A stretch of 64,000 nt of DNA from Minisyncoccota bacterium (GTDB lineage Bacteria; Patescibacteriota; Microgenomatia; PFEM01; JAFGMK01): contig JAFGMK010000013.1 of the NCBI GenBank assembly GCA_016927565.1, positions 8,796 through 72,795 of the forward strand, in the 5' to 3' direction. Positions 2,808 through 44,177 of this stretch are shown in pieces. Each line of letters starts with the position of its first letter. Positions within the stretch are counted from its first letter, which is position 1. The notes beneath the pieces are model-generated. The model was given only the letters and a program-made list of their open reading frames with translations. It was not told the DNA's origin and made no database searches. The position numbers were made by a program, and so were the translations under genes.

Positions 2808-4040
2808 TTATTCATATCTTAGGGCTTCGATGGGTTCTAATTTGGCTGCTTTTTGGGCCGGGTACCAGCCGAATAAAATTCCCACTCCGGCTGAAACAGC
2901 AAAGGCTAAGAGGATTGATTTTAAAGAGAGGGTAAAAGGCAAGCTCATGTAGGTTGAAAGGAGATAGGAAATGCCAATTCCTATTGCCGCTCCGATTATT
3001 CCGCCAAGAAAAGTAATCATCACTGCTTCGGTTAGAAACTGGGCGGTAATGATCTTCCTTTTGGCTCCCAGAGCTTTCCTCAGGCCGATTTCCCGGGTTC
3101 TCTCAGTGACAGTTACGAGCATTATGTTCATAATGCCAATGCCGCCGACAACCAGCGAGATGGCGGCAATGCCGGTCAGAAGAGTGGTAAAGGTATCGGT
3201 TACCGAGGTGACGGTGGAAAGAATGTCCTCTTGGGAAAAAATCCGGAAATCAGCCTGCTCGGGGTTACTTATTTTGTGGCGGGCTAAAAGAAGCCGGGCA
3301 ATTTCTTCTTGAGCTTGAGTCATTACTTTTTCGTTAATGGCGCTGATTGAAATTGAGGAAACATAATCGACACCAAAGAGAAGCTTTTGGGCTGTTGTTA
3401 GGGGAATCAAGACCAGATCGTCTTGGTTCATGAAGCCGCTGCCGCCTTTGGACTGGAGAACGCCGATGATGTTAAACACCTGATCGTTGAGTCTGATCGT
3501 CCGGCCGATCGGATTAACATTTTCACCGAATAGATCGGTGACGGTTTCCGGTCCTAAAACGGCGACTTTGCTCAGAGAGCTGACCTGGAGGCCGGTGATA
3601 AAACTGCCGCTGGAAATGGCCAGATTTCTGATATCGGCATAATCCGGCAGAACACCGGTAACGTTGGTGTTGGTATTATTTTTTCCGGCGACTATTTGAG
3701 CCCGGGATGAAAATTCAGCGGAGATTTTGCTAAGGGTTGTAATTTGGGGTGAATTGGCAATTGCCTGAGCATCCTCGTAAGTCAGGGTTTGAACACTGCC
3801 GCCCCTGATACCCCCGGAAATTTGCGAGCCGGGGGAAATAGTTAATAAGTTTGAACCTAAAGATTGAATACTGCTGGTAATTGATTGCTGGGAGGCTTGG
3901 CCTAAAGACATTAGAGCAATGACACTGCCGATGCCAATGACGACACCTAACATGGCCAGACCGGTGCGAACCTTGTTGAGGGTGAGGGTGAGTAGGCTTT
4001 CAGTGATTAATTCTTGGTAATCCATGTTTAAAAATTTCAA
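2808..4040 (-). CDS. ABC transporter permease, MacB/FtsX family
   Basis: N-terminal TM helix, a large periplasmic domain and three C-terminal TMs. The order is typical of MacB, adjacent to an ATPase and an adaptor. Confidence 0.85.
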   Translation of the reverse strand: MKFLNMDYQELITESLLTLTLNKVRTGLAMLGVVIGIGSVIALMSLGQASQQSITSSIQSLGSNLLTISPGSQISGGIRGGSVQTLTYEDAQAIANSPQITTLSKISAEFSSRAQIVAGKNNTNTNVTGVLPDYADIRNLAISSGSFITGLQVSSLSKVAVLGPETVTDLFGENVNPIGRTIRLNDQVFNIIGVLQSKGGSGFMNQDDLVLIPLTTAQKLLFGVDYVSSISISAINEKVMTQAQEEIARLLLARHKISNPEQADFRIFSQEDILSTVTSVTDTFTTLLTGIAAISLVVGGIGIMNIMLVTVTERTREIGLRKALGAKRKIITAQFLTEAVMITFLGGIIGAAIGIGISYLLSTYMSLPFTLSLKSILLAFAVSAGVGILFGWYPAQKAAKLEPIEALRYE

Positions 4041-4065
4041 TATGACGATCCGGGACAGGATCTTT

Positions 4066-4788
4066 CTATAGGGCTATTTTTGTTAAATTTCTCCGTTTTT
4101 TGTTGGGTTTGTCTTTTTCCAAATGGCCGTCGCGGAGAAAAATTATCCTTTTGGTGCACTCTGCAATCTCGTTTTCGTGGGTAATTACCACAATTGTTCG
4201 GCCTTTTCGGTTCAGCTGATCGAGAATTTTCATAATTTCTATTGCTTGTTTGCTGGCAATATTGCCGGTAGGTTCGTCAGCGAGAATTATGCTGGGATTC
4301 ATGGAAAGGGCCCTGGCAATCGCCACCCGTTGTTGCTGGCCGCCGGAAAGCTGGCCCGGGGTATGTTCGAGCCGGTTTTGCAAACCAACCATTGCCAAAT
4401 AACTCCGGGCTTTTCTGGCCCGGTCTTCTTTGGCAATCCCGCCGTACATCATCGGAATCATGACATTTTTTAAAGCGCTGGTTCGGGGAAGAAGATTGTA
4501 GAATTGGAAAACAAAGCCGATCTTTTGATTCCTGATTTCCGCCAGCTCGTCTTCATTCAGCTTTTCCACATTTTTGCCTTCCAGCAGATATTGGCCGGAA
4601 GTGGGCTTATCGAGGGCGCCGATAATATGCATCAGAGTTGATTTGCCCGAGCCTGAGGGGCCCATGATGGCGACAAATTCACCCCGATTAATCTTAAAAG
4701 AGACATTATCAAGGGCTCTGACTTGAATTTCTCCGGTTTGGTAAACTTTGGCGATGTTCTGGATTTTGATCAGGGGTTGAGGAGTCAT
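4066..4788 (-). CDS. ABC transporter ATP-binding protein (MacB/LolD-like)
   Basis: Walker [13 protein letters not shown] signature [15 protein letters not shown] and Walker B ILADEPTG. Confidence 0.9.
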
Positions 4789-4800
4789 AATTTTTCCCTC

Positions 4801-6033
4801 TTAGCGCATCATCATTCTCCCGCTGCCCCCGCCAGCGGCGGGGCCAAACGGCAAGACGCCATTGCTCCTGTTTTGAGCGGATTGATTGGGGACGGAAATT
4901 GTACCGGTAATTACCACTTCGCCTTCACTCAGACCGGAAATAATTTCGGTTTCGATGTCGCTGGAAATGCCGACCTCAACAGTCTGGTTTGTCTTCTGAC
5001 CGTCTTTTAAAATTACCACTGCTGCGGTTTCTCCTTGATAATTGATAGCGGTTGAAGGAACGATTAAAATATCGCTTTTTGTTTGGACAATGATACTGGC
5101 GGTTGCCGCCATGTTGGGTAATATTTGGCCGGTGCTGGTATCGAATTGAATGATGACCGGATAATTAGTGACATTGCTGGTGATTGTTCCCACCCGGTCG
5201 ACACTGACAACTTTGCCGGTAAAAGTTTTGCCGCTGACTGAGTCAAGAGTGATAGTGGTTTTTTGCCCGGGTTTAATTTGAGAAACATCAATTTCCGAAA
5301 CATTAAAAGTGGCGATTGGCAGGCCGCCGGTACTGATTGTGGCTACTCTTTGATTTGCCCGGGCGCCGCTGGCGGTTTCGCTGGCGCCGATATTCATTCC
5401 TTCGGCAATAGTAACGCTTTTGACGATCCCGGCAACGGGAGAGGTAATGACCGGAGCGGTGGTTTTATAAGCCAGAGCTGTTGAGTTTAATTTGGCCTCG
5501 GCATTTTTAATAGCGTCGTAAGCGTTATCGTGGGCGACTTCGGCCCGGGTGCGTTGTTCTTTCATTTCCAGGGTTTCATCGCTGTCATGGCCTTTGATTT
5601 CATCATAAACAACTTCGAGCGAAGCCCTGGCCGAGCGATAGTTATTATTAGCCGAGTTAAGCGAGTTTTGAGCGCTAAGATAATTGGAATAGGCCGAAGC
5701 GTAATTCTGTTTACCCTGAACGTCAAGATTAATTTCAACTAACTTTTGACCGGCGGAAACTTCATCGCCGTCACTGACATAAACCCGGCTGACGGTGCCG
5801 CTGGCTTGAGTAGTGATGTTTTCAATGTTTGAGGAAATGATTTTACCGGAAGCCGTAATCGAAGAAACAATCGTTCCGCGTTTTGCCGTTGCGGTTTGAT
5901 TGATTATCTGGGGCTTGTCATTTTTTGACCTCTGTCGGAAAAAAATAACTCCGGCAAGAACGACAATAATGGCCAGAAAAATCCGGGTCTTTGACTTGAA
6001 ATTTTTTTTGAGTGGATTAAGAATCTTTTTCAT
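4801..6033 (-). CDS. efflux periplasmic adaptor subunit (HlyD/MacA family)
   Basis: N-terminal TM, a coiled-coil-rich middle and a beta-barrel-like C-terminus. First gene of the ABC efflux operon. Confidence 0.75.
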   Translation of the reverse strand: MKKILNPLKKNFKSKTRIFLAIIVVLAGVIFFRQRSKNDKPQIINQTATAKRGTIVSSITASGKIISSNIENITTQASGTVSRVYVSDGDEVSAGQKLVEINLDVQGKQNYASAYSNYLSAQNSLNSANNNYRSARASLEVVYDEIKGHDSDETLEMKEQRTRAEVAHDNAYDAIKNAEAKLNSTALAYKTTAPVITSPVAGIVKSVTIAEGMNIGASETASGARANQRVATISTGGLPIATFNVSEIDVSQIKPGQKTTITLDSVSGKTFTGKVVSVDRVGTITSNVTNYPVIIQFDTSTGQILPNMAATASIIVQTKSDILIVPSTAINYQGETAAVVILKDGQKTNQTVEVGISSDIETEIISGLSEGEVVITGTISVPNQSAQNRSNGVLPFGPAAGGGSGRMMMR

Positions 6034-6182
6034 AATTGATATTCTATAAAAGAAAGTTTACAAAAACAAACTGAGAAAAAGCTGAAATATCGCCCGGTAA
6101 AAAGATAAACGATAATCTGATCAAACTGTTCCCGCCGGGAAAGCAATCACCAATATAAAATGATAAAATTTCCCAGACCGCC

Positions 6183-6215
6183 TGAATACTGGTTGGAGGC
6201 GGCTTTTTTGGATAA
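6183..6215 (+). terminator. Rho-independent terminator-like hairpin plus T-run
   Basis: ccgcct...aggcgg stem followed by cttttttgg. Confidence 0.4.
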
Positions 6216-6790
6216 TAAATGTCAGTTTGGTGGTTGATTTTCCTGAAGCAAGAATAGTTTTAGCTGAGAGGAGGGGAATGAGGCGGCTTGTCCATGACAA
6301 TCGAGCTGAGATGGTCGTTTTGATTACTTTAAAAGACTTGGCCTGGAGACATCGGCAATGGTGCCTTATTGTGTTTTTCTGGGCGGAAGCTTTGTCCGAG
6401 TCGAAGGAGACAGGGCTTAGCGATCTTGACGACACTTTTTGTGTTAAAAAGCCTTTTAAACATTCCCGTTTCTTTTTTAAATAGTCAGCCTAAAGGGAGC
6501 GGAAAAGAACCAGAGTCATATTTATGCGGCCAGAGCTCTAGGTTGGCAGGCCCTCCTTGTTGACAAAAGTCTAGAAAAATTATGCTTAATAGAATAAAAT
6601 AATTCTGAGTATGGTAAATTCAGAACTTGAGTATAATCTGGCTGGTGGTTTACTCCTTACAATTCGAGAAGGAGATTTCCGTCGGTTACAAGAAGGTTTA
6701 ATTTAGGCGGGCTTTAACTATGGTTGTCTTCTTCCTTTTCGAGCCTTAACAGAGGGAGGGGTTGAGAAATTAAGAAATTTTCCTTTACAG

Positions 6791-7339
6791 GTGGTTCACT
6801 TTGAGGAGGCATGGAATCCAACAAGTCAAGATAATTTGGGAAGAGCGGTTTTGGCGGGTCTAATTGGTTACTGGAGAAGGTTTCATGGAGACAAAACTGA
6901 ACCTCCAATTCTTCAGGACTCCTTTTTTCCTAGTAAGGCTACCTGTCAGGGGCTTTTTAGAGAAATTGCTGAAGCTTTTCCCGAGGCAAAATATATTTCT
7001 CACAAGATCCAGACAAAATTTCCTGCCGACAGGCTTTTAGTAGAAATAAACCCGGGGATAAATCTTTCAGATAAAGAAATTTTAGATATGACTGAGGAGA
7101 GGGGAATTGGTTTGGTATTTGACCCCAGTCATCTTCTTGCTTCTGAGAGGATGGTAAGTCGTCCCGGCTTGCCGACTAGACAGCCAAAAGGAGAATGGGA
7201 GAGGCAATTTCAGGTTTTTTCGTCAAGACTAGAGGTTGTTGATATTAATCCCGGCGATCAAAAAGGTGATGTTGGTGATTTATTGGCGGGAAGAGGAATG
7301 TTAAAAGAATTAGCTTCGGCGGCAGCAGATGCGGGGTAA
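6791..7339 (+). CDS. hypothetical ORF in a low-coding, higher-GC stretch; possibly not a real gene
   Basis: 182-aa ORF with no recognisable motifs. It sits in a 1.3 kb region otherwise lacking long ORFs. Confidence 0.2.
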   Translation: MVHFEEAWNPTSQDNLGRAVLAGLIGYWRRFHGDKTEPPILQDSFFPSKATCQGLFREIAEAFPEAKYISHKIQTKFPADRLLVEINPGINLSDKEILDMTEERGIGLVFDPSHLLASERMVSRPGLPTRQPKGEWERQFQVFSSRLEVVDINPGDQKGDVGDLLAGRGMLKELASAAADAG

Positions 7340-7644
7340 ATTTTTTAAGAGTAGAGATTCCTATCCCTCCGATCCGACAAATACCAGGTTCTCCTTTACA
7401 AGGGAAAGGTTTTGAGTTTTTAAGGGAAATTGGAAATGCTCTTAAGGCTTAGCTGGGTTTAAGTGAATACCCCTCCTATGAAAGCATCATGTCAAGGGTA
7501 ATAGATGAGTCTTTTTCAGGGTTTTGCCAACCAGCCTCCTATTGCTGGCCAGCTAAACTGCCATACTTTATCTTATCGCGGTCGGGTCAGGGGCGTTCTA
7601 TCCTTCCGGAACAGCTCCGTCAATTATTGTATGATTTCACCTTC

Positions 7645-7687
7645 AAGACAAGTTATAATGGGCATTAGTTTATGAAAAAAGACAGTC
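7645..7687 (+). repeat. copy 1 of a duplicated ~43-bp promoter/leader repeat (AAGAyAAGTTATAATGGGCATTAGTTTATGAAAAAA...)
   Basis: About 40/43 identical to 10097-10139. Contains a TATAAT -10 box 13 bp before an ATG. Here the ATG opens only a 32-codon ORF ahead of the CYTH gene. Confidence 0.7.
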
Positions 7688-7782
7688 ACCTTTTGGCAAA
7701 GAATCCCGCTTTAAAATTACACCAAGTTAATCAGGATTATTTTATAAAGGCGATTAAAAATACTAATTAGGAGACACAGAGA

Positions 7783-8322
7783 ATGGACAAAGACTATTTC
7801 GAGGACGAGGTAAAGGTTCTGGATGTTTCGCCAGAACATCTAAAGAGGGTCTTTGCTAAAATCAAGGCTAAAAAGGTCTTTGATGACAAAAGACTATTTA
7901 CCTCCTTTGATTATCCCAATTTAAAACTTACAAAAAATGGTAAAGGAGTTAGGCTAACAGAAGAAGGAAAATTAAAACTAAGCTTCACTACCAAATTATC
8001 AACCAAATCGAAAGAGACAATTAAGCTTTTTGTTAGTCGGAAAAAAGAAGCGGTTGATTTTTTAGATAGACTAGGCCTAAAGCCGATTGCTGAATGCCCC
8101 TCACATCGAATATCTTGGGAATGGAAGGGGGTAGACTTTGACCTTGATCAATTTCCCCAAATTCCACCTTTTTTGGAAATTGATCCGGGTGATTCGGGGA
8201 TTGCTTTGAAAAAGATCCTAGAACTTCTTGATCTGGGGAATAGAGAAGTTGTTACTCTTAGTACTCGGGAGGTTTATACTAAATACGGCAAAGATTATTT
8301 AAAGCTGTTTGCTATTAAATAA
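7783..8322 (+). CDS. CYTH-domain protein (triphosphate tunnel metalloenzyme / class IV adenylyl-cyclase-like)
   Basis: N-terminal EVKVLDV acidic strand, later RLTEEGKLKLSFTTK and LEID segments, and length about 180 aa, typical of CYTH. Confidence 0.45.
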   Translation: MDKDYFEDEVKVLDVSPEHLKRVFAKIKAKKVFDDKRLFTSFDYPNLKLTKNGKGVRLTEEGKLKLSFTTKLSTKSKETIKLFVSRKKEAVDFLDRLGLKPIAECPSHRISWEWKGVDFDLDQFPQIPPFLEIDPGDSGIALKKILELLDLGNREVVTLSTREVYTKYGKDYLKLFAIK

Positions 8323-8356
8323 AGATTAAAATTGCTACTGTGATAAAATTTTCCTG

Positions 8357-8746
8357 ATGAGAGACAATAAACTTACGATAAAGATTAATAAACCTTCAGA
8401 TATAGTTTTTGCTTACTACACAAATCCGAAAAACACTCCTCTCTGGTGGGATGCGGTCACCGTTGAAGAAACAAGTGATTGGCCAATAAAAATTGGGACG
8501 ATATATAAAAGTAAAAGTAAAGAAAGTGGCAACTGGAGCGAATTTACGGTCACTGATCTTAAGGAAAACGAAGTCTTTGAACTGACCTCAAAAGACGGCA
8601 AATATCATGTCCGCTACACCCATAAGCCAATCGATAAAAATTCCATGGAGCTTGAGTATTATGAATGGGTTGACGAAGGAGAGCTGGAAGAGCCCTTTAC
8701 GATGGAAATCTTGAGTCTACTAAAAGCAGCTATAGAAAAACTTTAA
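8357..8746 (+). CDS. SRPBCC (Bet v1/AHSA1-like) small ligand-binding protein
   Basis: About 130 aa with the IVFAYYTNPKNTPLWW N-terminus typical of AHSA1/CalC-like SRPBCC proteins. Confidence 0.35.
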   Translation: MRDNKLTIKINKPSDIVFAYYTNPKNTPLWWDAVTVEETSDWPIKIGTIYKSKSKESGNWSEFTVTDLKENEVFELTSKDGKYHVRYTHKPIDKNSMELEYYEWVDEGELEEPFTMEILSLLKAAIEKL

Positions 8747-8755
8747 ATAAAAATA

Positions 8756-9735
8756 ATGAAACCTAACAAACACCCTTTCCAAAAGCGAATAAGTTTTAAG
8801 GGCCAGCTTTCAGTATTGCTAAAAGAAATAGTTAGTGACTATCACTTTGGTAGTTACTTGAGTCATAAGGTCATTGGGGTGGGATACGAAGACTTTAATG
8901 TTATTGTCAAGACAAGTAAAGGTAAGTATTTCTTCAAGTTTTTTGCCGACTTTAGAAGTGAGATTGATTGCCAGCGCTATGTTGAGATCATGTTGGCAGC
9001 GGTTACTGGGGGAGTAAGCCATCCGAAGTTATACGAGTCTATAACCAGGGTTACTTTCACAAAATCAAAACTGAGGATGGCCTGGTCAGGCTGGTGGCTC
9101 TTGAGTATATCGACGGCAAGAGTTTTTTTGATCTCAAACAAAAACCAACTGCCAAGGAGAGGGACTTTCTGGTCAGGCAGGCAGCTTTGATTAACGGTCT
9201 TCAGATTAGACCTAAACTTTTTTATGACTACTGGGCGGTAGTTAATTTCTTAAAAGAATATCAAGAAGTTAAAAAACATCTTGAAAAAAAGGATATAAAA
9301 CTAATTGATCCTCTGGCCGAAAAGTTCAAGCAGGTAGATGTCAAAAGTCTGCCTCGTTGTCTTGTCCATGGCGACATCATTGAAACTAATGTTATCCGTA
9401 GCCAAAAAGGAAGATTGTATATTTTTGATTTTTCTGTTGCCAATATCTATCCCCGAATTCAGGAACTGGCGGTTATGCTCTGTGATATTCTTTTTGTCCC
9501 GGAAAGAGGAAAGTTCCAGGCAATTTACCAAAGAACCCTTGATGTCTACCAAAAGGAGATCAAGCTTGAAAAAGCTGAGATTGAGGCGCTGCCTCTTCTT
9601 GTCCGGGCGGCTCATGCGATGCATATTATTGGTTCGGTAAAATATGCTCTTGAAGAGGGGGATTTTGAAGAAAATAAACATTGGATAAAGATGGGGAGGG
9701 AGGGTTTGGCTTTTACTAGAAAGTTTCGGGGATAA
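8756..9735 (+). pseudogene. aminoglycoside/small-molecule phosphotransferase (APH/ChoK fold) split by a single frameshift near 9040-9100
   Basis: Two overlapping ORFs in different frames (8756-9190 and 9094-9735). The first carries a nucleotide-binding loop region. The second carries the Brenner motif HGDIIETN and the IFDFS metal-binding Asp. Reading across gives ...KLYES / NQGYFHKIKTEDGLVRLVALEYIDG. Confidence 0.6.
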
Positions 9736-10096
9736 ATTTAACTGTTACAACATAAAGGGGACAGCTCTCTTTTAGGTAGGGTATTCGTAGAAACTTCATC
9801 CGGAATGCAAGATGGGACTCCACACAGGAGAGACATTCGTCCATGTTATAATTTCTTCATTATGTCATCATTCCAGGTGGGGACGGTCAGAGCGGGACTC
9901 CAACTTTAGCCTCAAACAATCAGTCAGAGCGAGAATCAACATTTCCAAAGAGTAGGGTGATTCCTTTTCAATTTGCGGTCAAAATGCCTCCGCCAAGGTA
10001 CTATCCGATGATTTTGAAAAGAGATAAGCTAGGGAGGATTGTAAAGGCAAAATTTCCTCCAGCGGCTTTTTAGCTCCTAAGGGCCAAAAAACTCTA

Positions 10097-10139
10097 AAGA
10101 TAAGTTATAATGGGCATTAGTTTATGAAAAAAACAATCA
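10097..10139 (+). repeat. copy 2 of the duplicated promoter/leader repeat; supplies the -10 box and the ATG of the methyltransferase gene
   Basis: Same sequence as 7645-7687. The ATG at 10124 begins the 272-aa ORF. Confidence 0.7.
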
Positions 10140-10942
10140 AAACTTGTTATCAAGATCGAGCCCAGGACGAATGGCGACGACTCATTAAGGATAATTTCCA
10201 TCGTTTGGAATTTAAGACAACCCTTCACTTTCTAAAAAAATATTTGCCTAAGGAAGGTCTTATTCTTGATGCTGGCGGGGGGCCAGGCCGCTACACGATA
10301 GAACTTGCCAAACAGGGCTATGAAGTTGTCTTGCTTGATTTAACTCCTAAGCTCTTGAGGATTGCCAAGAAAAAAATTAAAAAAGCAAAGGTGGAAGATA
10401 AGGTTACGGATATTGTTGAGGGTTCGATTGTTGATCTGTCAAAATTCCCAGATAATAGTTTTGAGGCCGTTCTTTGTCTTGGCGGACCCCTGTCTCATGT
10501 CGAAGGTGAAAAAAAGCGTCAGAAAGCGGTTTCTGAATTAATCAGAGTGGCTAAAAAAGGGGCGCCAATTTTTGTATCGGTCATGGGAAGGCTAGGGCTT
10601 CTGATCGAAACGCCAATGTATTGGCCTGATGAGATTAAGCCTCGAGAACACTTTCGTTCTCTTTGGCAAGCAGGTGATGATCAAGCTTGGCGATGGGAAT
10701 ACTATTGCCACTTCTTCTTACCGGAAGAGTTAAAAAAGCTTTTTGCCTCAACTGGGAAAACCGAAATCGTCGATTGTGTTGGTCTTGAAGGTCTGGCTCA
10801 TGCGAAAAGAAAGATTAGCCAGTTGGCTTCTGGTTCACCTCAAGCTTGGAGAAATTGGCAGGAGGCTCACCTGGAGCTTTGTACCCATCCGGCTGTATTT
10901 GCGACGAGCAATCATATGATGATAATTTTGAAAAAAAAGTAA
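10124..10942 (+). CDS. class I SAM-dependent methyltransferase
   Basis: Motif I ILDAGGGPGRYTIELA with an acidic residue after beta2 (VVLLDLT). Confidence 0.75.
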   Translation: MKKTIKTCYQDRAQDEWRRLIKDNFHRLEFKTTLHFLKKYLPKEGLILDAGGGPGRYTIELAKQGYEVVLLDLTPKLLRIAKKKIKKAKVEDKVTDIVEGSIVDLSKFPDNSFEAVLCLGGPLSHVEGEKKRQKAVSELIRVAKKGAPIFVSVMGRLGLLIETPMYWPDEIKPREHFRSLWQAGDDQAWRWEYYCHFFLPEELKKLFASTGKTEIVDCVGLEGLAHAKRKISQLASGSPQAWRNWQEAHLELCTHPAVFATSNHMMIILKKK

Positions 10943-10961
10943 ACAAGTTGTCTTATTAAAA

Positions 10962-11432
10962 ATGAAAGTTAAAACTTTTTTACAGTATAAACATCAGCAA
11001 CAAGCTTACAAGATTTTTAAGTCTTATCCGAATCTTTTTACTAAAGCGGAGTTGAAAATTTTAAGGGAGGATTTAAAAACCGGTGACAATAAAAGCCACT
11101 TTAAGTTTGTGGCGGTGGACAAGGAGCAAGTAGTCGGTTTCATTAGCTTAGCTACTTGTTACGCTACCGACTATAGTTGGCAGGTTAACTGGCTTGCTGT
11201 TCATCCTGATTTTCAGCGTCTAGGAGTCGGCAGGTTGCTAATAAACTTTCTATTCCAAAAGGCTAAAAAACTAGGGTTAAAAAGGCTTTTTGTTGAAACC
11301 TGTAGTTGTCAGGGTGAAAAGCCAGCTAGATTGTTTTATCAGAAGCATGGCTTTAAAAAGATTGCCAGGTTGCCAGACTTTTATGCTAGGAAACATTCGA
11401 AGGTGATTTATTTAAAAAATATTGTAGAGTAA
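10962..11432 (+). CDS. GNAT family N-acetyltransferase
   Basis: Motif A FQRLGVGRLLINFLFQKA; length 156 aa. Confidence 0.75.
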   Translation: MKVKTFLQYKHQQQAYKIFKSYPNLFTKAELKILREDLKTGDNKSHFKFVAVDKEQVVGFISLATCYATDYSWQVNWLAVHPDFQRLGVGRLLINFLFQKAKKLGLKRLFVETCSCQGEKPARLFYQKHGFKKIARLPDFYARKHSKVIYLKNIVE

Positions 11433-11433
11433 G

Positions 11434-12015
11434 ATGAAAATTAAAGAACCGGCTTCTAAACAACCAATTCCACCTCATGCTAAAAGAGTTTTTAAGGGTA
11501 AGATATTTGATGTTTACCACTGGGAACAAAAATTATTTGATGGTTCCACGGCTACTTTTGAGAAAATAAAAAGACAAGATACAGTTAATGTTTTCCCAGT
11601 TACAAAGGAGGGTAAAATTATTCTTAGCCAGCAGAGACAGCCCGGCGGAAAGGGTTTTATCGGTTGTTTGGGAGGTAGAATTGACAAGGGCGAAACTCCG
11701 CTTGAGACAGCCAAAAGAGAGCTTCTAGAAGAGGCTGGTTTAAAAGCCAAGACGTGGCTTCTTTGGGACGCAAGACATCTTTTAGGTAAAATTGATTGGG
11801 CAATTTATACTTTTGTGGCTAAGGATTTAAAAAAGGTCGGTAAAATTCAATCTGATGCTGGCGAGAAAATAAAATTGATTCAAGTTTCTTTTGAACAGTT
11901 TTTAAAAACTGTCACCAGAGATAATTACCGAGATATAGAGATTGCTTTGATGCTTCTTAAAGCTAAAGAAGATCCAAAGAAGCTTAGCAAGATAAAAGAA
12001 CTGTTATTGAAATAA
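11434..12015 (+). CDS. NUDIX hydrolase
   Basis: Perfect Nudix box GGRIDKGETPLETAKRELLEEAGL (GX5EX7REUXEEXGU). Confidence 0.85.
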   Translation: MKIKEPASKQPIPPHAKRVFKGKIFDVYHWEQKLFDGSTATFEKIKRQDTVNVFPVTKEGKIILSQQRQPGGKGFIGCLGGRIDKGETPLETAKRELLEEAGLKAKTWLLWDARHLLGKIDWAIYTFVAKDLKKVGKIQSDAGEKIKLIQVSFEQFLKTVTRDNYRDIEIALMLLKAKEDPKKLSKIKELLLK

Positions 12016-12030
12016 GTAGAATAGTAATAA

Positions 12031-13047
12031 ATGAAGATTAATATTGATAAGCCAAAGATCTCTGAGCTAGGTGTACTCTTAGACTTGTGGCGGGGTCAGT
12101 ATGATTACCATCATGGTCTTGATGCTGAGTATTATGTGGCTAATTCTCTGGTTCTTGATAAGAAGTTTAGAGTCTATCTTGAAAAAGCAATAAACAAAAA
12201 TGATCCTTTTATACTGGCCGCTTACGAGGGAGGCAAGCTTGTTGGTTTTATTACTTTTGAAATTTCCAAAGCCGACTACTTCGACACTAAAATTAAAAGG
12301 TACGGTGAGGTGATTGAGCTTTTTGTTGATAAGGCTTATCGAGGTAAAGGAATTGGCAAAAAGCTAATGCGAGCGACCGAGGATTTTTTCAAAAGCAAGT
12401 CAATTTCTTATATCAAACTCCAATGCTCAACCTTTAATAAAAAGGCGATTGGTTTTTACCAGCACCTGAGTTATATTAACCGCCAAGTTTTTATGTTTAA
12501 AAGAATCGTGTCTGAGATGACATCGGAATATGTTGTTGATTTATATATGGACTTAGAGGGCCAAGGAGTTAAGATTTGGTTAGATGGTGGTTGGGGAGTT
12601 GATGCCCTACTTGGTAAACAAACCCGACCTCACGAGGATGTTGATATTGTTATCCAAAAAAAGAATCTTGGCAAACTCCGGAAATTCTTGGAAGAGAGAG
12701 GATATCATGATGTAGAAAGACCAGACACTAAGCCCCACAACTTTGTTTTAGGCGATGATGAGGGCCATTTGTTTGATATCCACGTTATTGTTATTGATTC
12801 CAAAGGCGATGGGATTTATGGCCCGCCCGAAAAGGGTGAGAAGTATCCGGCTGACTCTTTAACTGGGAAGGGGACAATTAGTGGTCAAGCAGTAAGGTGT
12901 ATTTCAGCCAAGCGAATGGTCGAGTTTCATACTGGCTATGACCCCAGAGAAACTGATTATAAGGATGTTGCTGCTTTGTGCAAGAAGTTTGGGATAAAAT
13001 TACCTAAGGTGTATGTCCATTTTAAAAAGAAGCAGGAGAAAAGATGA
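12031..13047 (+). CDS. two-domain protein: N-terminal GNAT acetyltransferase fused to a C-terminal ANT(2'')/AadB-like nucleotidyltransferase
   Basis: N-terminal GNAT motif A YRGKGIGKKLM. The C-terminal IWLDGGWGVDALLGKQTRPHEDVDIV ... GQAVRCISAKRMVEF aligns by eye with AadB LWIGGGWAIDARLGRVTRKHDDIDL ... GRPVRCNSWEAII. Confidence 0.7.
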   Translation: MKINIDKPKISELGVLLDLWRGQYDYHHGLDAEYYVANSLVLDKKFRVYLEKAINKNDPFILAAYEGGKLVGFITFEISKADYFDTKIKRYGEVIELFVDKAYRGKGIGKKLMRATEDFFKSKSISYIKLQCSTFNKKAIGFYQHLSYINRQVFMFKRIVSEMTSEYVVDLYMDLEGQGVKIWLDGGWGVDALLGKQTRPHEDVDIVIQKKNLGKLRKFLEERGYHDVERPDTKPHNFVLGDDEGHLFDIHVIVIDSKGDGIYGPPEKGEKYPADSLTGKGTISGQAVRCISAKRMVEFHTGYDPRETDYKDVAALCKKFGIKLPKVYVHFKKKQEKR

Positions 13048-13877
13048 AGAAGGTTTTGATCCTTGGAGCTAATGGTTATTTAGGAGCGCGTCTTTATTAC
13101 GATCTTCGGGGAAATTTTAAGGCTTACGGAACTTATCACCGGGAGCAGTTTTGTAAGGATTTTATTCATTTGGACATTACCGTTCAGGATGAGCTTTCTG
13201 AGGTGTTTAGAAAATATAATCCTGATTTCATTGTTCATGCTGCTAATTATCCTAGTCCCAGGTATGCGGTAGGTAACGAAGAGGGGTATAAAAAGCTAAA
13301 TCTTACGGCGACTCGGCTTATAGTTAATACTGCTAATAAAATTGGTGCTAGGGTCGTTTTTATCTCTACATTAGCTCCTTCCATTCTAAAGAATATCTAT
13401 GGCCAGTTGAAGCTGGAATCTGAGGCTGTAGTTAAAAAGGTTGAGGCGGGCTATTTGGTTATTCGTCCTTGCCTGATCTTGGGTTTTAGCCCAAATACGA
13501 CTAATGGTCGGCCCTTCAATCGGATTCTGAAGCATCTTGATAATAAGACCACGGCTGAGTTTGATACCTCTTGGAAATTTCGGCCGACTTATGTTGGCCA
13601 TGTTTCTGAGGTAATAGGGACTTGCATTGAAAAGAACATTTTCAATAAAACCCTTTCTGTTTTTTGTGATTCATTGCAGACCCAATATTCAACTGCCCGG
13701 GACATTTTAAAACCCTTTGGAGTAGTGGTTAAGCCCATTGATAAGGGAGTTGATATTCCGATAGCTGAGGCGGATGAGGCAGAGCTTGAAAATTTGGGCT
13801 TGCCTACCATTAGCTATGAAGAGATGATAGCCAAAATCCATTGGGAGATTAAAAATAGAGGGGAGTTTGTATTATGA
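13044..13877 (+). CDS. NAD-dependent epimerase/dehydratase (SDR) family protein, RmlD-like
   Basis: Rossmann motif ILGANGYLGARL and a catalytic YxxxK (YGQLK). Overlaps the neighbouring genes by 4 bp at both ends. Confidence 0.65.
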   Translation: MKKVLILGANGYLGARLYYDLRGNFKAYGTYHREQFCKDFIHLDITVQDELSEVFRKYNPDFIVHAANYPSPRYAVGNEEGYKKLNLTATRLIVNTANKIGARVVFISTLAPSILKNIYGQLKLESEAVVKKVEAGYLVIRPCLILGFSPNTTNGRPFNRILKHLDNKTTAEFDTSWKFRPTYVGHVSEVIGTCIEKNIFNKTLSVFCDSLQTQYSTARDILKPFGVVVKPIDKGVDIPIAEADEAELENLGLPTISYEEMIAKIHWEIKNRGEFVL

Positions 13878-14506
13878 AATTATTTTTGGCAGCCGAAGCA
13901 AAAAATCCAGCTAGTATTAGAAAGCTTAGAAAGTTTATTGGTGGTAGTTTTAAGGGAAAAAAGATAGCCTATGTTCCCACTGCCTCAAATGGGGAATATT
14001 ATGGTGCCTGGAAAGGCGGAGAATCAATCAAGAAAGCAATGTCTTTGGGTGCTGACTTAAAGATTGTTCAGCTTGAGGACGCCTGTTACCGAGATGTTAT
14101 TAAGCCAATTAGAGAGGCTAATATTTTGTGGATGGCAGGTGGAATGTCTGGCTATCTTCTTTACTGGATAAGGCGAGTAAAGTTGGATAAGGCGCTTCCG
14201 GGTATTCTTGAGAAGGGAACAATCTACGTGGGATCAAGTGCGGGGAGCATGATTTGTGCCAAAACTCAATACTCATCCGAGTGGTACCTGGGCGAGCCAG
14301 AGCCAGGCGCGAGCCTGGTTTCTGGATTAGGCTTGATTGATTTTGAAATCTATCCTCATTACGAAGAAAAGCTGTTGCCTAAGATTAAGAAGCTTTGGAA
14401 AAGTGGTGAGTTATACCTTTTGAAGAACGGTGAAGTAATTACTGTTGTTAATGAAAAGATTGAGGTTTTAGGGAAGAGGAGAGTGATAAGAAAAGAGGAG
14501 AAATGA
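13874..14506 (+). CDS. peptidase S51 (PepE/cyanophycinase-like)
   Basis: ILWMAGGMSGY and the nucleophile elbow VGSSAGSM. Confidence 0.6.
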   Translation: MKLFLAAEAKNPASIRKLRKFIGGSFKGKKIAYVPTASNGEYYGAWKGGESIKKAMSLGADLKIVQLEDACYRDVIKPIREANILWMAGGMSGYLLYWIRRVKLDKALPGILEKGTIYVGSSAGSMICAKTQYSSEWYLGEPEPGASLVSGLGLIDFEIYPHYEEKLLPKIKKLWKSGELYLLKNGEVITVVNEKIEVLGKRRVIRKEEK

Positions 14507-14666
14507 TAACTACTAAAGCAATTAAAATAATCAGGGATTTTGTAAGAGAAAAGGGGACGGTTCTCAAATAGGCACGGAATTAGTGATTTTTAATGATTTT
14601 TATTTTCGGGGTGGATCTCTATCTGTAGCTTGGGATAAGCGGCGACTATGGTAAAATAGCCTCACT

Positions 14667-15728
14667 ATGGCATCATTACAGGTGGGGATAGTTGGGCTCC
14701 CGAATGCCGGGAAATCTACTCTTTTTAATGCCTTGCTTAAAAAGCAGGTAGCGGATACAACCAACTATCCCTTTTGTACGATTGAGCCGAACAAGGGGAT
14801 AGTAGAAGTGCCGGACGGGCGGTTGCCGGTATTGGCGGAAATTGTCAGAACCCAAAAAATTATTCCGGCGGTAGTGGAATTTATTGATATCGCCGGTCTG
14901 GTTAGAGGAGCTCATCAAGGTGAGGGTTTGGGCAACCAATTTCTGGCCCAAATTCGGGAAGTGGCGGTTATTTCTCAAGTAGTCCGCCTTTTCAAAAATC
15001 CGGATGTAGCCCATGTTGAAAAGAGGTTGAATCCGAAGGCTGATGTGGAAATTGTCAATAGTGAACTTATTTTGGCTGATTTACAGACTCTAATGAAGCA
15101 GAAAGAGCCGCGGATTTCAACCGATAAGGAAGCTCTTTTCCGCTGGCAGGCAATTCAAAAATTAAAAAGGCATCTTGATCAAGGGCTGTTGGCAAGAGAG
15201 GTGTCTTTAACACCGGCCGAGAGGGAATTAACTAAGGATTTGTGTCTATTAACAGCTAAGCCAATGATATATGTGGCTAACGTCGGTGAAGATAATTTGG
15301 CCGGGGCAGTAGTTGATTTTGATTATCAACCAGTAATTAAACTCTCGGCAAAATTGGAGGAGTCTCTGATTTTACTGCCTAAAAAAGAGCAACTTGACTA
15401 TTTAGCCGAGTACGGGCTGTCAGAGGCGGGGTTGTCGAGGTTAATCAAGACTGCCTATGAAACTTTGGGGCTGATTTCTTTCTTAACCGCCGGGGAAAAA
15501 GAAGTTAGGGCATGGACAATCAGGAAAGGAATGCGGGCTCAAGAGGCAGCAGGGGTGATTCACACTGATTTCGCCCAAAAATTTATCAAGGCGGAAGTGA
15601 TTTCTTTTGAAGATTTTGTTCAGGATGGTGGTTGGGCTAATTGCCGATCTTTGGGCAAGGTTCGGCTTGAAGGACGGGATTATCAAATCAAAGATGGGGA
15701 AGTGGTGGATTTTAAGATTGGAGCTTAA
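14667..15728 (+). CDS. ychF: ribosome-binding ATPase YchF
   Basis: G1 GIVGLPNAGKSTLFNAL, a C-terminal TGS domain and length about 353 aa. Confidence 0.9.
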   Translation: MASLQVGIVGLPNAGKSTLFNALLKKQVADTTNYPFCTIEPNKGIVEVPDGRLPVLAEIVRTQKIIPAVVEFIDIAGLVRGAHQGEGLGNQFLAQIREVAVISQVVRLFKNPDVAHVEKRLNPKADVEIVNSELILADLQTLMKQKEPRISTDKEALFRWQAIQKLKRHLDQGLLAREVSLTPAERELTKDLCLLTAKPMIYVANVGEDNLAGAVVDFDYQPVIKLSAKLEESLILLPKKEQLDYLAEYGLSEAGLSRLIKTAYETLGLISFLTAGEKEVRAWTIRKGMRAQEAAGVIHTDFAQKFIKAEVISFEDFVQDGGWANCRSLGKVRLEGRDYQIKDGEVVDFKIGA

Positions 15729-15846: not shown

Positions 15847-15927
15847 AATGGATCAAGACGTTATTCAGCCGTCTCTTTTGATTTAAGGCTTGTTTCTTAA
15901 TTATACCTTTGCTATACTCTTTTTCAT

Positions 15928-16209
15928 ATGCGCGACTACGAGCTGGTTTTAATTACCAAAACCAAAACAGAAGCTGAAAACGAGGCGGTTCTCAAGTCAG
16001 TGAAAGAACTGATTTTGTCTTTTAAAGGAAAGGTTAATAAAACTAGTCCTTGGGGCAAGCGTGATTTGGTTTATCCGATTAAACAACAACGTTCCGGTTA
16101 TTATTTTCTTCTTCAGATAAAGCTTTCTCCGGAAAGTATAAAGGAATTTGAAAAAAAATTAAAACTTAACGAAAATGTTATCCGCTATTTATTAATCACC
16201 CGAGGATAG
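15928..16209 (+). CDS. rpsF: 30S ribosomal protein S6
   Basis: MRDYELVLI... N-terminus, about 93 aa, immediately upstream of ssb and rpsR. Confidence 0.85.
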   Translation: MRDYELVLITKTKTEAENEAVLKSVKELILSFKGKVNKTSPWGKRDLVYPIKQQRSGYYFLLQIKLSPESIKEFEKKLKLNENVIRYLLITRG

Positions 16210-41931: not shown

Positions 41932-42375
41932 ACCGGAAAGGGGAGAGGAGTAAAGAGGATCACATCCTATAATAATTTAAGTTATCTAGTTTTCACAAAA
42001 AAAATTCTTTTTTCACAAAAAAAGCAATTCTTAACAGGTTTTGCTAATTTTTTTAAAAAAACGGTCAGGTTTCAAACGGGTAGACCGGGGCGAGCAGAGG
42101 GTTACATCTCCCTTCCCGTTTTTAGGCTTAAAATTGAAGAAAAGATAGCTGTTTCGAGCAAAACGAAGTAATTTTTGGGATAATTTTTTGATATTGTTTG
42201 ATATAGTATCCAAGTCCGGCTGTGGAAAACTGGAAATGCATAAAAAATAACCTTGCTTCTTTTCGTAAAAAAAGGCTAGACCATAATTTATTAAATATTT
42301 TATTTTTCAATTAATAAGATTACTTTCCCCTGAAGAAGAAAAGCGGAAACTATTCTGCGGTGGAGAATCAATTTG

Positions 42376-42391
42376 ATTAATGTCGCACAAT
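42376..42391. repeat. direct repeat copy A (ATTAATGTCGCACAAT)
   Basis: 15/16 identical to 43004-43019, lying 628 bp apart upstream of the Xer-like recombinase gene. Confidence 0.6.
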
Positions 42392-43003
42392 GATACTTTT
42401 GCGACAATCTTGGGCAATCGACTCGGGGGAGAGTGTGGCAGGTTCAAAATCGGCCGTTTCGGACTTTCTAAAATAAAAAAAATTTTTAACCTGGGCATTT
42501 TTTTATATTTTTCTTAAAAAGAATTAAAATCAGCCTTCTTTTATTTTCCGTTTTTTCTTGTTCTTCTTCAGCCTGAAATAAAATCAGACTCCCCTGCCCT
42601 TTTTTGATTAAAAAAAGAAGGGTTTTTTCATCATTGCCTAAATAAAGAGGTCTTAGATGAACGCTGGTGACTTGGCTAAGTTTGAAATATCTTGGGTTTT
42701 TTTGTTTTTTTATCCAAAATAAGATAGAATAATTTATTATTTTATTTTGAAAATATGATATCAAAAGAAAGACCCACTGTAATAGTCAGATACGGCGGCC
42801 AGGATGAAACTGAACAATTACAATCGGCTCTTGCCAAATTGGGAATGAGGGGGATCAGCACCGATCCCGGTGATTCACCCCGGATGCGGGTTTACATTCC
42901 CGGCAAAATGGGTTTTTTAACTCTGACTTCGGGTCTGGAACAGGAAATTGCCAACCTGGTGAATTTCGAGATAAACTTCCGTCTTTTGGAATGAACTCCA
43001 ACT

Positions 43004-43019
43004 ATTCATGTCGCACAAT
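43004..43019. repeat. direct repeat copy B (ATTCATGTCGCACAAT)
   Basis: See copy A; located 200 bp upstream of the recombinase start. Confidence 0.6.
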
Positions 43020-43220
43020 AGTTGATTATTTTAAAAAAAAATGCTATGCTTCAGCCAGTCCATTTCAGCCTGCCCGGTTTGGGAAAATGGGTGGGAAGTT
43101 TTTTTGATTGGTTAAGAAAAAAATAAATTTTTTGGCAATGCGAAATATCTAAAACTATAGGACTACTCCCCTTCCCCATTATAGGGTATCAGTCAGATAA
43201 AAATTAGTTATTAGTCAGAA

Positions 43221-44177
43221 ATGAAAAGAAATTTGAGTCTGAATCAATTAATTGAAGAGTTTTTAGAAGGCCTGGAAATCGAAAAGAACTGTTCTCCTTT
43301 GACGATTCGCAACTATCATCACTATCTGAACCGATTTGCCGGCTGGTTTACCCAAAATTTTCCCAAAAGTAGCCTGGCAAATCTGGATTTGGATAAAGTT
43401 AGAAAATTCAGGATTCATTTAGCCCGATTTACGGGTCAAAACGGGCAAAAGCTCTCTCTTGTCACTCAATCTTACCATGTGATAGCCTTGCGCTCCTTCT
43501 TAAAGTGGCTTAGAAAGTTTGATTATAAGACGCTGGCCCCGGAAAAGATTGACCTGCCGAAGGTTAAATCCCGGTCGTTGAAGTTCCTTAACACCATTCA
43601 AACGGAGCGGCTGCTGGCTCAGCCGGGTCTGTCGACTCTTCGCGGCCTTCGGGATAAAGCAATTTTGGAAATAATATTTTCTACAGGACTTCGTGTTTCC
43701 GAAACTGCAAAATTGGATCGGAACCAATTGGATTTGGACCGGCGGGAATTCGGAGTAGTAGGTAAGGGTGGTCGGGCAAGGGTTGTTTTTTTATCTCCCC
43801 GGGCGGCTAAATGGGTAGGTCGTTATTTGGAGAAAAGAAAAGATAATTTTAAACCATTGTTTATTGCCCACCGGGAAAAAGAAGATCAGGAAAAAATAGC
43901 GGAGAATCGGTCTGACGAACAAATGAGACTAAGCCCCCGGACAATTCAGCGGCTGGTAAAAAAATATGCCCGAAAAGCCAAGTTGCCGATCGAGGTGACT
44001 CCCCATGTTCTTCGTCACAGTTTTGCGACCGATCTTTTGATGGCTGGAGCTGACCTGCGATCGGTCCAGGAAATGCTGGGTCACAAGAACATTGCTACCA
44101 CTCAGATCTATACTCATGTCACTAACCGCCAGCTAAAAGACGTCCACGCTGCTTTTCATGGCAAGGGAGGTAATTAA
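43221..44177 (+). CDS. site-specific tyrosine recombinase, XerC/XerD family
   Basis: N-terminal SAM-like core-binding domain. Catalytic R...HxxR...Y: LRVSE, HVLRHSFATDLL and IATTQIYTHV. Confidence 0.85.
   Translation: MKRNLSLNQLIEEFLEGLEIEKNCSPLTIRNYHHYLNRFAGWFTQNFPKSSLANLDLDKVRKFRIHLARFTGQNGQKLSLVTQSYHVIALRSFLKWLRKFDYKTLAPEKIDLPKVKSRSLKFLNTIQTERLLAQPGLSTLRGLRDKAILEIIFSTGLRVSETAKLDRNQLDLDRREFGVVGKGGRARVVFLSPRAAKWVGRYLEKRKDNFKPLFIAHREKEDQEKIAENRSDEQMRLSPRTIQRLVKKYARKAKLPIEVTPHVLRHSFATDLLMAGADLRSVQEMLGHKNIATTQIYTHVTNRQLKDVHAAFHGKGGN

Follow-up and report, generated by a model that had tools for sequence, protein, structure and literature searches.

Introduction

Several described systems resemble, each in part, the locus analyzed in this work, that is, the segment spanning positions 7645-14506 of a 64,000-nt stretch of DNA (hereafter, the window; positions 8,796-72,795 of contig JAFGMK010000013.1, assembly GCA_016927565.1). 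The segment, also referred to as the island, encodes nine small proteins, among which are an APH-fold kinase, a methyltransferase, a GNAT acetyltransferase, and a second GNAT fused to a nucleotidyltransferase (NTase). It lies directly upstream of the gene ychF in a metagenome-assembled genome (MAG) of Candidatus Pacebacteria, a member of the candidate phyla radiation (CPR); the whole contig is 93.5 kb long, and the accessions of the island proteins are MBN1263205-MBN1263214.

The C-terminal half of the fusion protein shares its domain (PF10706) and the active-site motif WxDGGWGVDxLxGxQxRxHxDxD with Lnu(A), Lnu(C), Lnu(D), Lnu(P), and ANT(2'')-Ia, and can be aligned with the LnuA structures 4WH5/4FO1 along some 156 residues. 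However, it differs from the validated Lnu enzymes, being just ~35-38% identical to them, scoring a third of the curated cut-offs, and being joined to a GNAT domain. In the bifunctional aminoglycoside-modifying fusions AAC(6')-Ie/APH(2'')-Ia and ANT(3'')-Ii/AAC(6')-IId, an acetyltransferase and a second modifying enzyme are likewise carried by one polypeptide; unlike in those proteins, the partner domains of NTase fusions of the window type are generic, and the activity of the family is predicted.

As to its position, the segment recalls the genomic islands found at the boundaries of conserved genes, with which it shares a lower GC content, absence from the corresponding position in relatives, imperfect direct repeats of the 5' end of the target gene, and a recombinase element in a relative. 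Unlike typical genomic islands, it has no integrase, transposase, tRNA target, or att-type inverted repeats, its codon usage is native, and it consists of two promoter-led units. Lastly, divergent resistance-like genes are common in CPR, a survey of 4,062 genomes giving an average of 7.5 for each (Maatouk et al. 2021, PMC8651080), and the GNAT, NTase, kinase, and methyltransferase of the island are hits of the same low-similarity type. That survey does not treat clustering or synteny, whereas several such genes occur together here, a joint function being unsupported.

A preliminary description of the segment had viewed it as an acquired antibiotic-inactivation module or, alternatively, as a small-molecule or nucleotide-signalling system. 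The interpretation toward which we lean is a different one: the segment is probably a lineage-specific accessory collection of stand-alone enzymes modifying small molecules, housed in a variable slot upstream of ychF, and not a dedicated resistance module.

Results

The position directly upstream of ychF

The relatives L083/L084 (YchF 71% identical) and L085 (68%) keep the order ychF-rpsF-ssb-(rpsR)-S41 peptidase-HtrA-...-prfB-rpmE as in the window. What precedes ychF is different in every relative: a large-serine-recombinase element with HTH genes, abutting the ychF start, in L083/L084; two-component genes in L085; Ham1 and a double Nudix in L086 (the YchF proteins of L083/L084, L085, and L086 are 67-71% identical to that of the window). 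This lineage therefore has a variable slot immediately before ychF, in agreement with the degenerate copy of the ychF 5' end found within the window (see below). No homologue of an island protein was found in L083/L084, L085, or L086, nor near ychF at 80 ychF loci of distant phyla (GTDB genome scan). The gene order of the segment is not kept in these relatives, which are distant ones. The recombinase of L083/L084 suggests that the 5' end of ychF is an attachment site for mobile elements in the lineage. The recombinase gene codes for 552 aa (L083 4347-6005, L084 4397-6055); it reads into the ychF start and closes a block of HTH genes and genes of unknown function, the other end of the element falling outside the contig.

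When ~15 billion proteins are clustered at 90% identity, each of the nine island proteins is alone in its cluster (a singleton). The segment has a GC content of 39.3% versus 43.3% for the rest of the window, of which it is the lowest 6.9-kb stretch; all ten coding sequence (CDS) pieces fall below the GC mean of 50 background genes, with the CYTH, GNAT, and Nudix genes nearly 3 sd below. Their synonymous codon usage is that of the background (z within +/-1 for 8 of the 10 pieces). The AT-richness proposed previously is, therefore, real yet modest, and the foreign codon usage that might have accompanied it was not found; this composition fits either an old, ameliorated acquisition or weakly constrained accessory genes.

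Organization of the segment

The features of the segment and of its borders are as follows (all on the + strand; domain calls by Pfam).

6611-7452, + strand: decayed gene of ~280 codons, interrupted by an in-frame TAG (6704-6706) and, near 7339, by a frameshift (three-frame translation)
7645-7680, + strand: repeat D3, copy a; TATAAT at 7654-7659, 12 nt before ATG 7672; heads unit 1
7672-7770, + strand: 32-codon open reading frame (ORF), its ATG inside D3 copy a; followed by AGGAG and the CYTH start
7783-8322, + strand: CYTH (triphosphate tunnel) protein, 179 aa; weak PF01928 match (24.7 bits versus a cut-off of 23.2)
8357-8746, + strand: SRPBCC/DUF3284 small ligand-binding protein, 129 aa; PF10604 (Polyketide_cyc2) 30.2 bits, PF11687 27.2 bits
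8756-9735, + strand: APH-fold kinase (PF01636), frameshifted; overlapping ORFs 8756-9190 and 9094-9735
9754-9883, + strand: repeat D2, copy a; degenerate duplicate of the region between the S51 gene and ychF, taking in the -10 box of ychF and 22 nt from the start of its coding sequence (ATGTCATCATTCCAGGTGGGGA)
10097-10132, + strand: repeat D3, copy b; the same cassette of -10 box and ATG, ATG 10124 being the methyltransferase start; heads unit 2
10124-10942, + strand: class I SAM-dependent methyltransferase of generic small-molecule type, 272 aa; PF13649/PF08241
10962-11432, + strand: stand-alone GNAT acetyltransferase, RimI-like, 156 aa; PF00583/PF13508
11434-12015, + strand: Nudix hydrolase of the ADP-ribose pyrophosphatase (NudF/NudE) type, 193 aa; PF00293
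12031-13047, + strand: fusion of a GNAT (residues ~1-160) and a PF10706 NTase of the Lnu/ANT(2'') fold (~165-338)
13044-13877, + strand: RmlD-like extended short-chain dehydrogenase/reductase (SDR), 277 aa; GxxGxxG and YxxxK kept; start overlaps the fusion gene by 4 nt
13874-14506, + strand: S51 (PepE/Lmo0363-like) serine peptidase, 210 aa; PF03575 84.6 bits; start overlaps the SDR gene by 4 nt
14550-14688, + strand: repeat D2, copy b; predicted functional promoter of ychF (TTGGGA-16-TAAAAT, placed 9 nt from the ATG) together with the beginning of the gene
14667-15728, + strand: ychF, heading the conserved ychF-rpsF-ssb-rpsR-S41-HtrA block and forming the right edge of the variable slot

The nine co-directional genes previously recognized are all confirmed in strand and position, and every domain call is upheld by Pfam. 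They are distributed in two units: unit 1 (7645-9735) embeds the 32-codon ORF and the CYTH, SRPBCC, and kinase genes, and unit 2 (10097-14506) the methyltransferase, GNAT, Nudix, GNAT-NTase fusion, SDR, and S51 genes, separated by 19, 1, 15, -4, and -4 nt. The CYTH protein (MBN1263205, named "CYTH domain-containing protein" by NCBI) carries the N-terminal ExExK motif as EDEVK at residues 8-12. The first ~17 nt of the 32-codon ORF resemble the 5' end of the methyltransferase gene, with a 1-nt indel, so that this ORF may be a remnant.

The frameshift reported for the kinase gene is borne out in the sequence, one base being missing from the run of five G at 9008-9012. Adding one G restores an ORF of 326 aa, whose match to PF01636 is a single stretch covering positions 3-229 of 239 and scores 57.6 bits versus 38.7 for the C-terminal fragment. 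Since the identical frameshift is present in the independent Logan assembly of run SRR13394437 (contig L082), it reflects either a genuine loss of one base or a homopolymer error of the reads of that run. That assembly, built with k=31, is identical in sequence to the window and is broken at the exact 31-mer of the D3 copies.

The repeats D3 and D2

The two copies of D3 are identical at 35 of 36 positions, and a 25-nt core occurs exactly twice in the window, where 0 occurrences are expected. The single difference is at the fifth base (7649 C versus 10101 T), immediately before the 31-mer common to both copies. No homology was found beyond ~45 nt. The duplicated promoter repeat of the preliminary description is thus confirmed as a duplication; it does not bracket the island, since the copies enclose its first three genes only. 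The arrangement of a -10 box close to the ATG is found also at ychF and at the HlyD operon in the window, as well as at the ychF of relatives, and on this ground D3 is plausibly a leaderless promoter of native style. More in general, a TAnnAT box lies 7-12 nt before the ATG, without a Shine-Dalgarno sequence, at the operon-first genes ychF, rpsF, and the HlyD operon (14630-14669, 15900-15930, and 6033-6060 in the window; around 9990-10003 in L085 and L086), which suggests that leaderless transcripts may be widespread in this lineage.

The repeat D2 has a 46-nt core (9838-9883 versus 14643-14688) with 36 of 46 identical positions (E about 2e-6 within the window) and a second collinear block (9754-9788 versus 14550-14584; 26/35 identical), which lies ~85 nt upstream of the core in both copies. 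Therefore, a decayed copy of the promoter and 5' end of ychF is placed between units 1 and 2, so that direct repeats of the target lie on either side of unit 2. No further copy of D2 or D3 was found upstream of 7645 or elsewhere in the window.

Flanking regions and mobility genes

Upstream of the segment, on the - strand (2808-6033), lies a MacAB-type tripartite ABC efflux operon encoding a MacB_PCD/FtsX permease, an ABC ATPase, and an HlyD adaptor; in the first gene of this operon, a -10 box and the ATG are 7 nt apart. The long non-coding stretches described at the borders do exist (6034-7782, 1749 nt; 14507-14666, 160 nt), and another one is located inside the segment (9736-10123, 388 nt). 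The first of them is the longest gap in the window; its length thus stands, whereas its non-coding nature does not, the decayed gene at 6611-7452 filling about half of it. This gene has no significant Pfam match, with a faint hint (E=0.05) of an AP_endonuc_2/xylose-isomerase-like TIM barrel; the idea that it is the remnant of a recombinase was rejected, no match being detectable. The remaining part, 6034-6610 (~580 nt), contains neither a credible ORF nor any match in Pfam or Rfam, and a terminator-like hairpin followed by a T-run (CCGCC...GGCGG TTTTTT) lies at about 6179-6210. No Rfam family was found in the non-coding stretches (gathering score over the window; E<=1 over 5900-7800), and no tRNA is present in or near the segment, the sole tRNA of the window being at 33.9 kb.

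Different origins were considered and rejected. There is no DNA match to plasmids; the IMG/VR relatives of the NTase are just 34-46% identical, and there are none for the SDR, which speaks against a viral origin. An anti-phage defence system was discarded because the PADLOC hits are generic and at the level of domains (the methyltransferase domain to mad2, the Nudix to PDC-S07), and an integron-type cassette array because there is no integrase, each unit has its own -10 box, and the repeats are direct and not attC-like inverted ones. Elsewhere in the window, a 1.29-kb ORF-poor stretch (41932-43220) includes the lowest GC content (35.6% for 42-43 kb), and directly downstream of it lies a gene for a 318-aa XerC/D-like tyrosine recombinase (43221-44177).

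Similarity to resistance enzymes

Judged by the curated cut-offs of NCBIfam/AMRFinder, no island protein reaches an antimicrobial resistance (AMR) or equivalog family. The PF10706 domain of the fusion is itself well supported (117 bits versus a gathering score of 21, residues 170-316), and its motifs GGWGVD, DVDI, and DIH are invariant among 32 homologues and align with LnuA (4WH5). However, its scores stay far below the cut-offs of Lnu(D) (117 versus 325), Lnu(P) (104 versus 300), and ANT(2'')-Ia (30 versus 350). The closest solved relatives are LnuA structures (76 bits), followed by ANT(2'')-Ia (34 bits), and the domain is 38% identical to the plasmid-borne Lnu(P), an identity too low to carry over a lincosamide or aminoglycoside specificity. 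Hence, the GNAT-ANT(2'') fusion recognized previously is indeed a fusion, whereas its NTase is Lnu-like (Lnu(D) 117 and LnuA 76 versus 30-34 bits for ANT(2'')-Ia).

The other proteins are more distant. The curated and solved relatives of the kinase are type II homoserine kinases only; there is no hit to an APH or MPH family and, at E<=0.01, no resemblance to the resistance kinases of these two kinds. Scores for the AAC families are 16-33 bits versus cut-offs of 140-410 (33 versus 265 for the AAC(6')-Ia family with the stand-alone GNAT), and this GNAT reaches 52 of the 86 bits needed for RimI. The best Erm family score is 17 versus a cut-off of 212, the methyltransferase having 2AVN (a UbiE-related methyltransferase) as its best PDB match and reaching no NCBIfam cut-off. 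The Nudix protein matches ADP-ribose pyrophosphatases in the PDB at E=2e-14 (NudE 48.9 bits versus 169), the SDR is RmlD/MAT2B-like, and the S51 peptidase matches PDB 3L4E at E=1.6e-11. It follows from these family matches that the co-occurrence of all three aminoglycoside-modifying chemistries, on which the preliminary description relied, does not hold beyond a coincidence at the superfamily level: the kinase is homoserine-kinase-like, the GNAT RimI-like, and the NTase Lnu-like. According to the sequence comparisons, the fusion is the only protein with a link to resistance at the family level, and this link is to lincosamide rather than aminoglycoside NTases.

These data bear on the hypothesis that the segment is a horizontally acquired multi-drug island, inactivating aminoglycosides, lincosamides, or macrolides produced by neighbours or hosts. 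In its favour, the NTase is a Lnu/ANT(2'') family member that keeps its catalytic motif intact, the GNAT half of the fusion is weakly similar to a metagenomic AAC(6') (meta-AAC0020, E=3e-8), and the union of a GNAT and an NTase recalls bifunctional resistance enzymes; moreover, the MacAB-like efflux operon adjoins the segment, GC content is lower, repeats flank it, and CPR genomes are rich in resistance-like genes (PMC8651080). Nevertheless, we consider this hypothesis unlikely. The best AMR score, that for Lnu(D), is far from its cut-off, the kinase is frameshifted in addition to being unrelated to APH and MPH at the threshold used, and the CYTH, SRPBCC, Nudix, SDR, and S51 proteins have no resistance role. 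Furthermore, the segment has no plasmid match or mobility gene, and its genes are not linked elsewhere, as the contexts of the NTase homologues indicate (see below). Of the acquired antibiotic-inactivation module initially proposed, we therefore retain the accessory and probably acquired nature of the genes, in agreement with the GC content, the break of synteny, the D2 repeats, and the singletons, and not the antibiotic-modifying module.

Genomic context of the NTase and SDR homologues

The NTase domain falls within an extensive environmental clade, whose members are 50-67% identical to one another. At 80 metagenome loci with NTase homologues (487 kb, including the four loci of the ychF relatives), no tblastn hit at 1e-4 was found to the other island proteins, and the same is true for the GNAT half of the fusion itself. 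The 113 immediate neighbours of the NTase homologues belong to 148 Pfam families, the commonest of which, the class I methyltransferases, accounts for 6 of them. The contigs of these homologues range from 31 to 74% GC, so that the gene appears to be spread across phyla. Elsewhere, the NTase domain is fused to GNAT (in either order), GrpB, AAA_18/AAA_33 P-loop kinases, a serine alpha/beta hydrolase, or a class I methyltransferase (examples are P0077, P0081, P0093, and P0114, as well as L129, L139, L142, and L153); homologues combining GNAT and NTase, with extra domains, occur in uncultured Gammaproteobacteria and others (P0077, P0081). The fusions make up a family of modifying enzymes that appear to be bifunctional. 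On the basis of these scattered contexts and varied fusion partners, the domain family behaves as a predicted stand-alone modifying enzyme.

The SDR family is compact (about 70 proteins, 40-65% identical, YxxxK invariant). Among the seven contexts examined, no two are alike and none includes an S51 gene, and five of the seven are mobile, defence, or mixed detoxification clusters:

L167: serine-recombinase element
L168: mixed region bounded by an integrase, with GNAT, SDRs, FMN reductase, HD, Shedu, and HAD
L169: sugar-nucleotide neighbourhood with Nudix genes
L170: defence region, with an adjoining Nudix
L171: glycosyltransferase cluster
L172 and L212: mixed detoxification clusters (nitroreductase, alpha/beta hydrolase, DUF1801, glyoxalase/Ble-like, MFS, and copper ATPase)

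The mixed clusters of L168, L172, and L212, which belong to small low-GC genomes, are likewise runs of unrelated small enzymes, some beside integrase or defence genes. They differ from each other in content, and what they have in common with the window is the SDR only (plus a GNAT in L168). As a second example of a mixed cluster, the low-GC (36%) accessory island of L168 (2702-13045) lies beside a tyrosine integrase; it also comprises two adh_short SDRs, TerB_N, DIT1_PvcA, a Shedu (SduA_C) nuclease, and a HAD hydrolase.

Discussion

If the segment is an accessory collection, a question concerns the events that might have led to its assembly. Since unit 2 is flanked by diverged copies of the promoter and 5' end of ychF, DNA was probably inserted or duplicated at the 5' region of this gene, and at least two such events probably built the segment. 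It forms two separate transcription units and not one module, each presumably expressed from a copy of one leaderless cassette, and the kinase of unit 1 is inactivated, or mis-sequenced, by the loss of one G. The genes are best regarded as stand-alone enzymes of detoxification or house-cleaning, each mobile by itself, that gathered at this position, and not as the steps of one pathway. By analogy with the chemistry of LnuA and ANT(2'')-Ia, the NTase of the fusion would use ATP to attach AMP to a hydroxyl of an amino-sugar-like compound, whereas the GNAT half would acetylate an amine of the same or of another compound.

Some observations weigh against this interpretation. A consensus sigma-70 scan, which does call the ychF promoter, gives no call for D3 because its -35 is poor, and the promoter role assigned to D3 is predicted from its -10 box alone. 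Neither an integrase nor a recombinase or transposase is found among the ORFs of 6-14.7 kb. The relatives compared have YchF proteins at most 71% identical to that of the window, so that absence from relatives is a coarse statement; indeed, the nearest YchF proteins among 5.8 billion clusters are 65-71% identical, without any close relative there. The survey of gene contexts covered the homologues of two of the island proteins, the NTase (fusion) and the SDR. In addition, unit 2 has an operon-like packing with 4-nt overlaps, which often goes with functional coupling. Lastly, some partial recurrences exist: in L167 the SDR orthologue is immediately preceded by a divergent small NTase, in L168 it lies 4.8 kb from a GNAT that shares 54% identity with the GNAT half of the fusion, and in L170 and L169 it has a Nudix gene beside it or nearby.

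The last two points would be expected if unit 2 were one coherent pathway for tailoring or salvaging a nucleotide-sugar or amino-sugar metabolite, a hypothesis to which we assign about the same low probability as to the resistance island. Besides the close packing with overlapping starts and the NTase-like, GNAT, and Nudix genes near SDR orthologues, it is favoured by chemistries that plausibly all touch sugars or nucleotides and by the SDR orthologue placed in the glycosyltransferase cluster of L171. However, the seven SDR contexts show no common gene order and no S51 gene, the 80 NTase loci have no linked homologue of the other island genes, and no sugar-activating or dehydratase genes (rmlA/B/C) are located nearby; moreover, Nudix and GNAT are abundant families whose proximity by chance is not negligible. 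The partial recurrences therefore keep the pathway alive at low probability, far short of conserved synteny.

Extending the idea of an accessory collection, one can imagine the 5' region of ychF as a recurrent insertion hot spot of this CPR lineage, working without an integron integrase, at which promoter-bearing units, each with a D3 start and a D2 end, are stacked head to tail, and unit 2 could then be a CPR-specific operon for the tailoring of amino sugars or antibiotics. Serine-recombinase elements, of which the nearest relative has one next to ychF, might perhaps have driven the stacking. This scenario is speculative, and we hold it to be somewhat less probable than either the resistance island or the coherent pathway.

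Much less probable is a partial assembly artefact, in which a 2.45-kb piece (7651-10131) would have been misplaced as a strain variant, a tandem loop, or a collapsed small molecule. It is true that the k=31 Logan assembly of SRR13394437 contains this piece as a separate 2481-bp contig (L082) with both ends in the repeat, and that the downstream contig (L001) starts inside the repeat, at 10103. However, a k=31 graph treats any 31-nt repeat in this way; the D3 copies differ at 7649/10101 and in their flanks, so that longer k-mers or reads can resolve them, as the 93.5-kb MAG contig did. Furthermore, the codon usage of the piece is that of the genome, and the pseudo-ychF copy of D2 within it ties it to the locus.

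The weakest of the alternatives is a second-messenger system centred on the CYTH and Nudix proteins. Class IV adenylate cyclases and triphosphatases are found among CYTH proteins, and Nudix enzymes can degrade signalling nucleotides. Although both domains are present, such a system is very improbable, and the signalling alternative of the preliminary description finds no specific support, since the two genes belong to different transcription units 3 kb apart, the Nudix is of the common ADP-ribose pyrophosphatase type, and there is neither a sensor, effector, or cyclase partner nor a PADLOC defence or signalling match.

The locus carries a caution: the superfamily labels kinase, acetyltransferase, and nucleotidyltransferase, taken alone, can be misread as a resistance island, whereas one domain here is related to resistance, and distantly. 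It also adds one more worked example to what is already known, namely, that reduced CPR genomes keep patches of divergent detoxification-like genes, and indicates that such a patch can occupy a variable slot beside a conserved block of ribosomal protein genes. Lastly, the family of GNAT-Lnu-like fusions and the wider environmental clade of the NTase would be reasonable targets for functional resistome screening.

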